From assembly GCA_903820035.1 (NCBI GenBank), contig CAIJFT010000286.1, forward strand, positions 102-64,101: a stretch of DNA of 64,000 bases. The letters run 5' to 3'. Shown one piece after another: positions 31,094 to 51,822 of the stretch. Origin of the DNA: an uncultured Opitutia bacterium. Its GTDB lineage: Bacteria; Verrucomicrobiota; Verrucomicrobiia; Opitutales; Opitutaceae. The notes under the pieces are model-generated. The model was not told where the DNA came from. It was given only the letters and a program-made list of their open reading frames with translations, and searched no databases. Numbering within the stretch: the first letter of the stretch is position 1; each line of letters starts with the position of its first letter. Both the position numbers and the translations under genes were made by a program.

Positions 31094-32553
31094 GCGTTAT
31101 CAGCGGGCAAGGCCCGGAGTTCCTTCAGGGCGGCCAGTGCCGCGTTGCGCGCCCGCGTGTGGTCCACGATCGGCCGCGGATAAGTCTCGCCCAGCCGTAC
31201 ACCGGCGGCGGCGAGCACGTCGGGCGGCGCCTCCCACGGGGCATGGATGTGCTCGGCCGGCAGTCGCGCGAGTTCCGGTACCCAGCGGCGGACGTAGTCG
31301 CCGTTGCCGTCGAACTTCACGCCCTGGAGCACCGGCGCGAAGATCCGGAAGTACGGCGCGGCGTCCGCGCCGCAGCCGGCAGTCCACTGCCAGCCCAGCG
31401 TGTTGCTCGCGAGGTCGGCGTCGACGAGCGTGTCCCAAAACCACGCGGCCCCGTGGGTCCACGGCAGCCGGAGGTGTTTCACGAGAAACGAACCGGCCAC
31501 CATGCGCACGCGGTTGTGCATCCAACCCACCTGCCAGAGTTGGCGCATGCCCGCATCGACCATCGGATAACCCGTTTGCCCCCGCTGCCAGGCGCGCAAT
31601 TTCACGCCGCCCGGATCGTCCGCCCACGGAAACCGGCCGAACTCCTCCCGCAAAGGCCGCTCGGGCGTGTAGGGAAAATGATAAAGGAGGTGGTGCGCGA
31701 ACTCGCGCCAGCCAACCTCGCTAAGAAAAACCCGCGCCCCGTTGTTCGGGGGAAAAACCCCCGAGGACCGGGACGCGTTCTCGACGGCGGCCCAGACCTG
31801 TCGCGGCGACAACTCTCCCGTGTGCAGCCAAGGTGAAAGCATCGACGTGCCATCGCGGTCCGGGAGATTGCGTGTGTCGGCGTAGTCCGCCATCGCGCCG
31901 GCGACGAAGGTCTTCAAGCGCCGCGCGGCGCCAGCCTCCCCCGGTTCCCACTGGGCGGCAAAACCGGCATCCCAGCGCCTGGTCGGCAGCAAGCCCAGAT
32001 CGCCCAGCGCGAGCGAGCGCGGCCAGCGGTCCGGCGCCGGAAGTGCAACCGCGCCCGACTTCACCGGCGGGCTCGTCGGCAGGGTAAGGCAATGCCGCCA
32101 GAACGGCGTGAAAACCTGAAACGGTTTCCCCTGCTTGTTCGCAATCGTGTGCGGTTCGTGCAGGAGCGCGGCGTTGCTACTCTTCACCTCGAGTCCGGCG
32201 GCCGCGAACTCGGCCTTGAGCTTGGCGTCGCGCGCCATCACCGCCGGCTCGTAGCGTCGGTTCCAAAACAGGGCTCCCGCGCCCGTCGAGCGCACCAGCT
32301 CCCGCAAGACTTCCGACGCATCGCCCCGCGCGACAATCAAGCGCGAACCACGCTCGCGCAGCGCCGCATCGAGTGCGCCCAGGGAGTGGTGCAGCCACCA
32401 GCGAGCGGCGCCGCCAGCGACCCAACGCCCCTCGCCTGCATCGTCCAAAATATAAACGGGAATGACCGCGGCGCCACGCGCGACGGCGGCGAGCAAGGCG
32501 GGATTGTCCTGCAGGCGCAGGTCTTGGCGGAACCAAAGGAGGGAAGGCTTCAT
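31090..32553 (-). CDS. phrB: Deoxyribodipyrimidine (CPD) photolyase
   Basis: WFRQDLRLQDNPAL, TSMLSPWLHTGELSPR, EVGWREF, GQTGYPMVDAGMRQLWQVGWMHNRVRM, WQWTAGCG. Confidence 0.95.
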   Translation of the reverse strand: MKPSLLWFRQDLRLQDNPALLAAVARGAAVIPVYILDDAGEGRWVAGGAARWWLHHSLGALDAALRERGSRLIVARGDASEVLRELVRSTGAGALFWNRRYEPAVMARDAKLKAEFAAAGLEVKSSNAALLHEPHTIANKQGKPFQVFTPFWRHCLTLPTSPPVKSGAVALPAPDRWPRSLALGDLGLLPTRRWDAGFAAQWEPGEAGAARRLKTFVAGAMADYADTRNLPDRDGTSMLSPWLHTGELSPRQVWAAVENASRSSGVFPPNNGARVFLSEVGWREFAHHLLYHFPYTPERPLREEFGRFPWADDPGGVKLRAWQRGQTGYPMVDAGMRQLWQVGWMHNRVRMVAGSFLVKHLRLPWTHGAAWFWDTLVDADLASNTLGWQWTAGCGADAAPYFRIFAPVLQGVKFDGNGDYVRRWVPELARLPAEHIHAPWEAPPDVLAAAGVRLGETYPRPIVDHTRARNAALAALKELRALPADNA

Positions 32554-47094: not shown

Positions 47095-47430
47095 TCACGA
47101 GCCGGGCTTGGGTGCCGTCGACTTCTCCGCGCCGTAGGTCTTCACCAGGTAATCGACGATCGGAGCAATCGCCTCGTCGGGCACGGGCGCAGCGAAGGTC
47201 TTCTGCATCTTTGTGACCGTTGCCTGCCAGTACGCGCGCGCCGACGTCGGCTGCATTTTGAAATAATCCACCGAGTGGCAGGTGTAACACATTCCCGTCG
47301 CCAGCGCGTAGCCGGGCAACGGCGATTCGATCAGCCGCGCCGTCTCGGCCGGCAACTGGATCTCCAAGGCCGTGACGCGCACGACGGCGCCGAGGGCAGC
47401 AACCAACGCGATAAATTCCCCCTTCCTCAT
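47095..47430 (-). CDS. sorB: SorB-like c-type cytochrome subunit of sulfite dehydrogenase
   Basis: ATG 47430 overlapping the sorA stop; signal peptide; IQLPAET...LPGYALATGMCYTCHSVDY (CxxCH)...WQATVTKMQKTFAAP. Confidence 0.85.
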   Translation of the reverse strand: MRKGEFIALVAALGAVVRVTALEIQLPAETARLIESPLPGYALATGMCYTCHSVDYFKMQPTSARAYWQATVTKMQKTFAAPVPDEAIAPIVDYLVKTYGAEKSTAPKPGS

Positions 47431-48653
47431 ACGGCCTCCACGTGGACGGTTTCGACGACGTTGCGGAGATAGCCCGCGGGATTCCACAGCGGCTCGAGCG
47501 GCTGCGATTCGCCGATGCGGTTCAGCGCGCGCGCCATCAACGTGTGCGACCCGCGCTGCGTCGGCGTGAAGGCGATCTTCCACTCGCGAAACGAATATCG
47601 CCCGAGGTCCTCGCCGAGATTCGCCGCGCGCCAGGTACGCCCCCCGTCGCTGGAGAACGCGACCTCCCGGATGCCCTGCCCGCTATCGAAGGCGATGCCG
47701 CGCACGACGGTCTCACGGCCGACCGTGACGGTCGCCTGGTCCGTCAGGCTCGTGATGAACGACCGGATCGTGAACCGCTGGATCGGCTCGGTCTTCTTCG
47801 CCGTCGTGCCGGGCGCCACGCTCCGGCCGGGTGTGTCGGGCGTGCGGTAGGCCGCGCTCATCCAGAAACCGGTGAAGACGCTGTCGAGCACCTCGATGTC
47901 GTCGACATGCTTGACCCAATACGTGCCGTAGTAGCCCGGCACCACCAGCCGCAGCGGGTAGCCGTTCAGCATCGGCAGGTCCTCGCCGTTCATCGCCCAC
48001 GCGAGCATCACTTCGCCGTCGAGCGCGTGGTCGACATCGAGCGCTTTCACGAAGTCCGGCGTGCCCGGCAACGGCGGCTTGTCGAGGCCGTTGAACGCCA
48101 CCTGCCGCGCCTCCTTGGCGAGGCCGGCCTTTTCGAGAATCGTCTTCACGGCCACGCCGGTCCACCGCGCATTGCCCATCGCGCCGTGACCGAGTTGTCC
48201 GCCATTCACGCGCGGCTTGAAGAAACCACGACTGTTGCCCGAGCACTGGTTGACCGCCACGACCTCGACGGGCGGGGCGAGTTTCTTGATGTCGTCGAGC
48301 GAGAGCGTGAGCGGTGTCGCGACCTTCCCGTGGATCTTGAGTCGGAACGCGCCCGGATCAACCGACGTCGGGATGTCGGACAAATGGTACCGCACGAAGA
48401 ACGCATCGTTCGGCGTGAGCAGGCCCTCGTTGAAAACGGCGAACGGCGTCTCGAGCTGCGGCGGCCGCGCGGTCATGCGGATGAGTGGACGCTTCTGCGG
48501 GTACGCCACGAGGTCGCGTTCGCCATTCTCAAACGGCATCAGCACGGTATCCGCGGCGCCGAGGAGGCGCGAGAGCGGACCCCCGAGGGCGGCACCGGTG
48601 GCGAGCATCGCGCTAGTTTGGAGAAAGCGACGGCGGTCAGGGGCGGACTTCAT
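47427..48653 (-). CDS. sorA: SorA-like molybdopterin sulfite dehydrogenase, Tat signal
   Basis: DRRRFLQ; FFVRYH; Mo-ligand QCSGNSR; GAMGNARWTGV; LNGYPLRLVVPGYYGTYWVK. Confidence 0.92.
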   Translation of the reverse strand: MKSAPDRRRFLQTSAMLATGAALGGPLSRLLGAADTVLMPFENGERDLVAYPQKRPLIRMTARPPQLETPFAVFNEGLLTPNDAFFVRYHLSDIPTSVDPGAFRLKIHGKVATPLTLSLDDIKKLAPPVEVVAVNQCSGNSRGFFKPRVNGGQLGHGAMGNARWTGVAVKTILEKAGLAKEARQVAFNGLDKPPLPGTPDFVKALDVDHALDGEVMLAWAMNGEDLPMLNGYPLRLVVPGYYGTYWVKHVDDIEVLDSVFTGFWMSAAYRTPDTPGRSVAPGTTAKKTEPIQRFTIRSFITSLTDQATVTVGRETVVRGIAFDSGQGIREVAFSSDGGRTWRAANLGEDLGRYSFREWKIAFTPTQRGSHTLMARALNRIGESQPLEPLWNPAGYLRNVVETVHVEAV

Positions 48654-48736
48654 CGACGGCCAACGCTGCCGACGATAGCGCGGAGCGCAACGATGTTTGA
48701 GTGGTGGGCGGGACCGTGGTCCGCGTCCGTCCGGTT

Positions 48737-48862
48737 GTAGGCCAGCGCGCTTGCGCGCGCCCCACGGAGCGGCGCTTTCCGAAGCGGCGCTTCACGTAAA
48801 GCCGGCGGTTGGGAAACCGCCGCTCCGACCGGCAATCCGCGCTCGCGAGCGAGCTGACCTAC
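48737..48862. repeat. Nested REP doublets (outer GTAG pair enclosing an inner inverted pair)
   Basis: Outer 48737-48760 vs reverse complement of 48839-48862: 20/24. Inner 48765-48791 vs reverse complement of 48801-48827: 21/27. Confidence 0.85.
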
Positions 48863-48944
48863 GCCACGCCGCGCGGGGCGGTTTCGATTGCCAACGTCCG
48901 CGCTGTAACCACAGGGTTACCTCGCCCCTTCTTATCTTATCTCC

Positions 48945-50321
48945 ATGCAATCGCCCTCCCCTGCCACCCGTCGCACGTTCCTGAAAACCCTCGGCGCCGC
49001 TGGCGTCGCCGCCCCGTTCATCGCCCGCAGCCTCCGCGCCGCGGCACCAAGCGGCGTCCTGCGCCACGTCAGCTTCGGCTCGGCCGGCATGGCCTGGGCC
49101 GACCTGCAGGCGATCACCAGCAATCCATTTGTGAAGCTCGTCGCGGTCGCCGACGTCGATCTCAACCGCACGAAGCAGGTGAAGGAGGCGTTCCCCGATG
49201 TGAAGGTCTATCAGGACTGGCGCCAGTTGCTCGACAAGGAGAAGAACAACTTCGACTCCGCCAACGTTTCCACCCCGGACCACATGCACGCCGCCATTGC
49301 GATGTCCGCGATGCAACTCGGCAAGCACGTCTACTGTCAGAAGCCGCTCGCACACGACATCTACGAGACGCGCATGCTCACCAACTACGCCCGCGAGAAG
49401 AAGCTCGTGACGCAGATGGGCATCCAGATTCATTCTTACAAGGTGTACCGTCAGGCCGTCGCCCTCGTGCAGAGCGGCGTCATCGGCAAGGTCAAGGAAG
49501 TCCACACCTGGAGTAACAAGAAATGGGGCGACCTCGGCGCACCCGTGGTCAAATACGACCCGGTACCGTCGAATCTCGACTGGGATATTTGGCTCGGCGG
49601 CGCGGCGGCGCGGCCGTTTGTCGGCGGCGGTTATTATCACCCGAGCAACTGGCGCAAGCGGCTCGACTTCGGCACCGGCACGTTCGGTGACATGGGCTGC
49701 CACATTTTTGATCCGGTGTTCGAGGCGCTGGCATTGACGTCGCCACTGTCCCTCCGCTCCGAGGGTCCGGCACCGGACCAGTGGAATTGGGCGGTCAACG
49801 CGAAGATTCACTACGTCTTCCCGGGCACGAAATTCACCGAGGACAAAACGGTGCCGATCACCTGGTACGACGGCGACGAGCGTCCGCCGGCGGAGATCCG
49901 CGCGCTGATCGAAACCCCGGCCGCCGAGGCCGCGGCCAAGTCGGGCAAACGCAAAGGCGGCGAAGCCGACAATCAGGGTTCGATCATCATCGGCACGCAG
50001 GGCGTGTTGCACATCCCGCACGTCGCGGCGCCGAAGCTGTTCCCGATCGCCAAGTTTAAGGACTACAAGCTCCCCGAGTGCGAACAGGGGCACCATTGGA
50101 CCGAGTGGGCCGAGGCGTGCATGAAGGGTGGCAAGCCCGGCGCGAACTTCGATTACTCGGGCCCGCTCACCGAAGCGGTGCTGCTCGGCAGCGTCGCGGT
50201 GCGCTTCCCGAAGACGAAGCTCGAGTGGAACGGCGCGAAGCTGCAATTCGACAACGAACGCGGCGCGAACCAGTTCCTCCGCCGCACTTACCGCAAGGGT
50301 TGGGAAGTCGCAGGCTTGTAA
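48945..50321 (+). CDS. Tat-exported Gfo/Idh/MocA oxidoreductase
   Basis: TRRTFLK; NVSTPDHMHA, KHVYCQKPLA, GTFGDMGCH. Confidence 0.93.
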   Translation: MQSPSPATRRTFLKTLGAAGVAAPFIARSLRAAAPSGVLRHVSFGSAGMAWADLQAITSNPFVKLVAVADVDLNRTKQVKEAFPDVKVYQDWRQLLDKEKNNFDSANVSTPDHMHAAIAMSAMQLGKHVYCQKPLAHDIYETRMLTNYAREKKLVTQMGIQIHSYKVYRQAVALVQSGVIGKVKEVHTWSNKKWGDLGAPVVKYDPVPSNLDWDIWLGGAAARPFVGGGYYHPSNWRKRLDFGTGTFGDMGCHIFDPVFEALALTSPLSLRSEGPAPDQWNWAVNAKIHYVFPGTKFTEDKTVPITWYDGDERPPAEIRALIETPAAEAAAKSGKRKGGEADNQGSIIIGTQGVLHIPHVAAPKLFPIAKFKDYKLPECEQGHHWTEWAEACMKGGKPGANFDYSGPLTEAVLLGSVAVRFPKTKLEWNGAKLQFDNERGANQFLRRTYRKGWEVAGL

Positions 50322-51670: not shown

Positions 51671-51822
51671 GTAGTCCTGCGCGTGAGCGCAGGGAATCCG
51701 TCGCCTTCCGCTCATAGTCGACCCGGCCGCCTGGCGGGCGCCCGCCACGGGGCGGGCCTATTTCGGAAAATCCGGACCGCACGTCCGAGCCACATGCGCC
51801 CTGCGCTCACCCGCAGGGCGAC
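51671..51822. repeat. REP family A doublet enclosing a degenerate inner inverted pair
   Basis: 51671-51694 vs reverse complement of 51799-51822: 21/24. Inner units at 51717-51739 and 51740-51761 (ATAG GCCCGCC CCGT GGCGGGC on the minus strand). Confidence 0.8.

Follow-up and report, generated by a model that had tools for sequence, protein, structure and literature searches.

A REP doublet nested within a doublet of another family between divergent sorA and oxidoreductase genes in an Opitutaceae genome: probably one copy of a composite mobile repeat

The nested element and its locus

The window, a stretch of 64,000 nt from an uncultured Opitutia bacterium, belongs to a genome of 6.05 Mb in 469 contigs with a G+C content of 65% (G000; the window lies in contig C286). 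In this window, a sulfite-oxidase-like gene (sorA) and a TAT-signal Gfo/Idh/MocA oxidoreductase gene are divergently oriented and share an intergenic region of 291 nt. The relatives of the oxidoreductase are proteins of Opitutaceae (Verrucomicrobiota), with a top match from Horticoccus sp. at 83% amino-acid identity. The element analysed here is located within this divergent region, at a distance of 83 nt from sorA and 82 nt from the oxidoreductase gene. The features of the locus are the following:

47427-48653, minus strand: sulfite-oxidase-like gene (sorA), flanking the 291-nt intergenic region
48737-48760, plus strand: outer REP unit, left arm, GTAGGCCAGC followed by the stem GCGCGC/GCGCGC; member of a family of about 170 units
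48761-48765, no strand: short junction that separates the outer left arm from the inner unit (b side, from the alignment of nine composites); 0-8 nt long in the other composites
48766-48791, plus strand: inner REP unit of the GCTT type, GGAGCGGCGCTTTCCGAAGCGGCGCT
48792-48800, no strand: central spacer, the loop of the long hairpin as obtained by folding
48801-48827, minus strand: inner REP unit of the GGTT type, GGAGCGGCGGTTTCCCAACCGCCGGC on the minus strand
48828-48838, no strand: long junction, GGATTGCCGGT on the minus strand, in common with the composites at C80:1928 and C356:31274
48839-48862, minus strand: outer REP unit, right arm, GTAGGTCAGC followed by the stem GCTCGC/GCGAGC
48887-48921, plus strand: conserved upstream motif of the oxidoreductase gene, ATTGCCAAC ... 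GTAACCACAGGGTTACC, kept in G017, G046 and G008
48945-50321, plus strand: TAT-signal Gfo/Idh/MocA oxidoreductase gene, flanking the 291-nt intergenic region

The initial annotation had described two inverted pairs, one inside the other, and our recount returned the same structure. The outer arms, GTAGGCCAGCGCGCTTGCGCGCGC (48737-48760, plus strand) and GTAGGTCAGCTCGCTCGCGAGCGC (48839-48862, minus strand), agree at 20 of 24 positions, and the inner arms (48765-48791, plus strand, and 48801-48827, minus strand) at 21 of 27; a repeat finder delimited the inner arms as 25 nt with 84% complementarity. A 141-nt stretch carrying the element was predicted to fold into one long hairpin, with a free energy of -82.5 kcal/mol as RNA (z = -4.46, with none of 200 shuffled sequences as good) and of -48.6 kcal/mol as DNA (z = -3.92). 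Each of the four units also folds singly, the GCTT-type inner unit by itself reaching -12.4 kcal/mol as DNA, and the four hairpins together amount to about -36.5 kcal/mol (DNA) or -54.1 kcal/mol (RNA). Of the two states named in the initial annotation, one long hairpin or four short ones, both fold, but they are not isoenergetic: the four-hairpin state is 12-28 kcal/mol weaker, and the long hairpin is preferred.

The flanks of the element (CCGTCCGGTT / element / GCCACGCCGC) show no target-site duplication, which is the criterion for MITEs. Transposition of the single-strand IS200/IS605 type leaves no target-site duplication, and the flanks of this 126-nt element fit such a process.

Two REP families and their RAYT genes

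The outer units have the consensus sequence GTAGGYCAGC-NCGC-NN-GCGN-GCGC, with a 6-bp stem and the GT[AG]G-type head by which REPs are recognized. Using fuzzy matching, we found 179 units in this genome with up to 3 mismatches to GTAGGYCAGCNCGCNNGCGNGCGC, as compared to 12 in the reversed-genome control; an nhmmer search with a 36-nt profile of the unit returned 146 matches and was less useful than the fuzzy pattern. Eight exact copies of the right outer arm of our element are present in the genome. The family includes 51 convergent doublets, mostly of 52-79 nt with a mode of 73 nt, which is the REPIN arrangement. Additionally, the variable position of the stem is paired in 123 of 135 units, when 57.5 would be expected if both sides were independent, and the compensatory pairs are G-C (52), T-A (45) and C-G (22). 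Counted with up to 1 mismatch, this genome has 95 units, G001 has 102 and G007 has 223, and the family is essentially missing from the other 28 relatives sampled in the genus; G003 has just 1 unit.

In G007, a RAYT gene of 169 codons is located between clusters of outer REPs on both sides (G007:C792). Its translation scores 85.8 bits against the NCBIfam model NF047646 (REP_Tyr_transpos, cut-off 80) and contains an HUH motif, PDHLHLL, and a tyrosine motif, NFYEHRL, with the predicted catalytic residues. Orthologues in G037 (C260, 79% identity to the G007 protein) and G033 (C468, 71%) also have outer REPs on both sides. In the assembly of this genome, no orthologue of the outer-family RAYT was found, the best tblastn match being a truncated remnant in C141 with 37% identity. 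The gene could have been lost from this genome or could be unassembled, since a gap is possible among 469 contigs, and the present-day mobility of the outer family here can thus only be inferred. In genomes that lack the RAYT, REPIN populations have been reported to become smaller and to lose their master sequence (RAREFAN, 10.1101/2022.05.22.493013); the diverged outer copies of this genome would fit that pattern if its RAYT was truly lost.

Other candidates for the outer-family transposase were considered and rejected. The C141 remnant (C141:11238-11640, 70.4 bits to NF047646) is flanked by another family, with GTAGGYCCGGCCGG hairpins on both sides, of which the genome has about 68 units versus 5 in the control. 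Around the RAYT-like genes in G007:C24, G001:C269 and G003:C172, the REPs belong in each case to families other than the outer one. The Y1-transposase gene of C126 is multi-copy, occurs in 24 of 31 relatives irrespective of the presence of either REP family, and has no flanking outer REPs; the Y1-transposase-like protein encoded at C126:4357-5301 has a C-terminal extension of about 180 residues, with up to 20-25 matches in G003 and G016.

Nearly every RAYT paralogue of the genus that we examined (loci L085, L086, L090, L113, L116, L120, L122, L125 and L127, in G001, G003 and G007) has its own hairpin family with a GTAG or GTGG head, and at least eight such families were observed. As each paralogue is accompanied by a distinct REP family, the REP-RAYT systems of this group are diverse, which points to a large undescribed REP-RAYT diversity in Opitutaceae.

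The inner unit is formed by a GGAG head, instead of the textbook GT[AG]G, followed by the hairpin CGGCGSTT-loop-AASCGCCG. A loose hairpin filter recovered 49 matches versus 40 in the reversed-genome control; since this is barely above the control, we kept only matches with 0-1 mismatch and a TTTCC loop. The family occupies about 17 loci in this genome. In a comparison with relatives, 12 units were counted in this genome, 31 in G001, 110 in G003 and 75 in G007. Seven of these loci have no outer unit nearby (C10:7052, C412:1802, C416:2751, C428:1000, C58:230, C58:1590 and C66:89298), and one, in C331, adjoins a complete outer doublet. The 20 inner copies fetched from G001, G003 and G007 are all free-standing doublets of 50-95 nt without outer arms, a form also present in this genome. 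In G003, the inner doublets (L160-L166) are accompanied on one side by a conserved small hairpin similar to ACGATTTTGATCGT, by which the mobile unit in that genome may be larger than the doublet.

A RAYT-like gene is linked to the inner family. In this assembly it is split over C10:7108-7475 and C210:1-380, two contigs that overlap by about 119 nt. Inner-family sequence is present at both ends of the gene, as a doublet on the 3' side (C10:7052-7100) and as one unit on the upstream side (C210, approximately 377-400). The encoded protein scores 54.9 bits against NF047646, under the cut-off of 80, and 28.9 bits against Pfam Y1_Tnp, over the cut-off of 23. In its assembled form, the reading frame contains a TAG shortly after the overlap and lacks a stop codon around the usual end, which could reflect decay of the gene or else an artefact or branch of the assembly at the join.

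The two pairs of our element were initially assigned to different families, and their separate distributions bear this out: the GGTT-type inner unit has 110 copies in the sister genome G003, which, with 1 outer unit, is without the outer family. The genome-wide search located the units both apart and together, neither of them being unique to 48737-48862. Given that both families are independently distributed, the structure arose by one doublet entering another.

A dispersed composite and its probable origin

The nested form is present at about nine loci of this genome: C286 (48737-48862), C80, C204, C356 (twice), C307, C111, C106 and C131. At C80:1928-2047, C204:3757-3874, C356:23893-24018 and C356:31274-31385, the inner pair is located between outer arms, and in C307, C111, C106 and C131 the outer arms are decayed or truncated. 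The C286 copy shows 75-85% full-length BLAST identity to four other composites. When the composites are aligned, they have a fixed layout, which consists of an outer arm, a junction of 10-12 nt, the GGTT arm, the spacer, the GCTT arm, a junction of 0-8 nt and the second outer arm. The asymmetry, with the long junction on the side of the GGTT arm and the short one on the side of the GCTT arm, is found in 9 of 9 composites. Three of them (C286, C80 and the C356 copy at 31274, hereafter C356b) also have the junction GGA(T/C)TGCC(G/-) in common, and their flanks are unrelated. Apart from these three composites, the GGATTGCCG part of the long junction is found next to outer-family sequence just once, beside the solo outer REP C418:31290, where it appears as GGGTTGCCG.

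Nine of the approximately 17 inner loci are nested, and a random intergenic placement would produce 0.03 (the probability of five or more is about 3e-10). A pattern made from the outer-to-inner junction matched 8 times in this genome and was absent from G001, G007, G003 and G016. A looser version of the same pattern, applied to all 61 species genomes of the genus, matched in this genome and at one isolated site in G061, which looks like a chance match.

There are thus two independent families, each of them linked to a RAYT, and a composite of both that is repeated with a common architecture, is restricted to this species and is absent from the syntenic site of its relatives. The lack of composites in the relatives, together with the common junctions and the fixed layout, favors one capture followed by multiplication. 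Based on these observations, we consider it probable that we are dealing with one copy of a non-autonomous, composite mobile repeat, in which an inner REPIN was captured in the spacer of an outer REPIN and was then multiplied with it as a unit, and that this copy is a passenger at the locus. In the proposed sequence of events, a REPIN of the inner family (GGAG-CGGCGSTT) would have entered the spacer of an outer-family REPIN (GTAGGYCAGC), probably once and in the lineage of this species. The composite of 118-126 nt would then have been copied whole to new intergenic sites, which would have been possible because the outer REP hairpins stayed intact. The likely agent would be a RAYT-type single-strand DNA transposase that recognises those hairpins. 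The composites without a clear common junction, i.e., all but three of the nine, could be old diverged copies or the product of separate events. The initial annotation had proposed sequential insertion of one doublet into another; the doublet within a doublet is indeed what we found, but the nesting probably did not take place at 48737-48862 itself, given that the composite is dispersed over about nine loci of one species.

A further reading, to which we give somewhat less than an even chance, is that the inner family has been propagated in this genome mainly as cargo of another RAYT-REPIN system, considering that its own RAYT looks decayed and that 9 of about 17 loci are inside outer REPINs. 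If this is true, the cargo-carrying REPIN is a new replicating lineage confined to one species, and REPINs can carry payload.

Alternatively, inner REPINs could have been inserted into resident outer REPINs in situ, independently at each composite locus, with spacers or loops as preferred or tolerated targets. Nested pairs of other families are present in the same genome. At 51671-51822 of the window, a GTAGYCCTGCGCGTNAGCGCAGGG pair encloses a GTAGGCCCGCC-type palindrome, the enclosing GTAGYCCTGCGCGTNAGCGCAGGG family having 115 copies in the genome and 0 in the control. At C275:6602-6721, a 120-nt pair of the outer family encloses a GTAGGCCCGGCCGG-type unit, not one of the inner family, making a third kind of nesting. 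These pairs indicate that insertion into REPIN spacers has happened more than once, and to that extent they speak for insertion in situ. The GGAGCG form of the GCTT arm, common to the composites and to the unit beside the RAYT-like gene of this genome, could come from a recent burst of inner-family copies; nevertheless, because of its presence beside that gene, the variant is uninformative between such a burst and descent from a single composite. Against independent insertions, G001 and G007 are richer in both families and yet have no composites, which makes it unlikely that the inner family generally prefers outer spacers, and, the G061 match aside, none was found elsewhere among the 61 genomes of the genus. 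Additionally, the junction GGA(T/C)TGCC, which is common to three composites, occurs in 0 of 51 ordinary outer doublets, and the asymmetric layout is identical in all copies. We therefore regard repeated insertion in situ as unlikely.

Another possibility, in place of transposition to new sites, is that gene conversion or template switching exchanged the composite among resident outer REPINs, with the 24-nt outer arms as homology. Outer arms are plentiful in this genome (about 170 units), the outer RAYT was not found in its assembly, and the truncated or hybrid outer arms of C356b, C131, C106 and C111 are such as sloppy recombination might leave. Nevertheless, the truncated arms are equally explained by decay, and the outer arms, being short and diverged, provide poor homology for gene conversion, an explanation that we find highly improbable.

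With regard to the copy between sorA and the oxidoreductase gene, this gene pair is also adjacent in G017 (Horticoccus), G001 and G048, where the syntenic intergenic region is about 154-163 nt shorter and has neither outer nor inner units. An intergenic alignment with five relatives did not define a base-exact empty site, because their intergenic regions are too diverged. The conserved upstream motif (48887-48921) is outside the element, between it and the oxidoreductase start codon, and it consists of ATTGCCAAC followed by the palindrome GTAACCACAGGGTTAC(C), which occurs at just 3 sites in the genome; this motif is a likely operator or promoter element. A scan of positions 48600-49000 for consensus promoters and terminators found nothing, and the Rfam search of the element returned no match at gathering score (the best was Atu_C4, 24.5 bits versus 80).

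The location between divergent starts, which had been taken as unusual for REPs, proved to be ordinary for the outer family. According to our own rough gene calls, in which 87% of the genome is coding, 64 of the 96 outer-family loci are in predicted intergenic regions, 39 of them tandem, 16 divergent and 9 convergent. By intergenic length, the background from the same rough calls is 57% tandem, 21% divergent and 23% convergent, so that the divergent share of the outer family is close to what the genome offers.

The least likely of the explanations, with very little probability in our view, is that of a locally selected regulatory structure co-opted from a repeat, whether a cruciform, a protein-binding site, an insulator or an RNA hairpin, that couples or separates the divergent promoters: the hairpin is very stable and central in the divergent region, and enterobacterial REPs affect mRNA stability and bind IHF or gyrase, but the element is missing from the relatives' syntenic regions, the conserved motif is outside it, its copies occur in tandem, convergent and divergent contexts alike, it has no Rfam match at gathering score, and the four-hairpin state is much less stable than the long hairpin. 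The initial suggestion that a cruciform or conformational switch affects both promoters finds no support in these data. Returning to the composite mobile repeat, the copy at 48737-48862 would be a neutral passenger between two divergent promoter regions, and its ability to form a hairpin would be a property of the repeat family and not a device evolved for these two genes. In terms of annotation, the hairpin at 48737-48862 is repeat DNA, and a regulatory label would be appropriate only with experimental evidence.

Comparison with known repeat systems

A substantial literature deals with REPs, REPINs and RAYTs (Bertels and Rainey 2011, PMC3116915; PMC3337134; RAREFAN preprint, 10.1101/2022.05.22.493013). 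As in known REPIN-RAYT systems, both families analysed here are made of short units, imperfectly palindromic and with a conserved head on the 5' side, arranged mostly as inverted doublets that form hairpins. Their extragenic copies number in the tens to hundreds, and their distribution among related species is patchy. Each family is found on the flanks of a single-copy RAYT gene of its own, which for the outer family is the case in sister species. In contrast to known REPINs, a doublet is here located inside a doublet of another family, and about nine copies of this composite exist. The host is also different, a verrucomicrobial member of the Opitutaceae instead of a proteobacterium, as are the GGAG head of the inner family, which is not GT[AG]G, and an outer RAYT that was not found in this assembly. 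Several REP-RAYT systems are now documented in Verrucomicrobiota (Opitutaceae); the REPIN studies consulted here are mainly on proteobacteria. The usual view of a REPIN is that of a minimal replicator that has no cargo and is bound to a single RAYT gene. A multiplying composite would show that REPIN spacers can carry foreign sequence and that repeat families can interact within a genome.

In strain SBW25, five unordered REPIN clusters have been described, and co-localised REPINs are no commoner than expected by chance (PMC3337134). The likeness to our case is that of one REPIN within or beside an unrelated REPIN. The difference is that here 9 of about 17 inner loci are nested, as compared to the 0.03 expected, with one fixed layout and common junctions.

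In the BIMEs of E. coli and Salmonella, the Y and Z variants of REPs from a single system are joined by defined linker motifs and mostly alternate in tandem. BIMEs are similar to our composite, by analogy only, in being a repeated mosaic of different palindromic units in a fixed order, and differ from it in that the composite contains a nested doublet from a second RAYT-linked family.

IS elements have also been reported to use REPs as targets for insertion (Tobes and Pareja 2006, PMC1525189). In both cases, a mobile element landed inside a REP structure; nevertheless, the insert in those REPs is a full insertion sequence with its own transposase, whereas here it is a non-autonomous REP doublet. 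In comparison with these systems, what differs here is that the nested product is itself repeated in a fixed layout, accounts for approximately half of the inner loci and is confined to one species.
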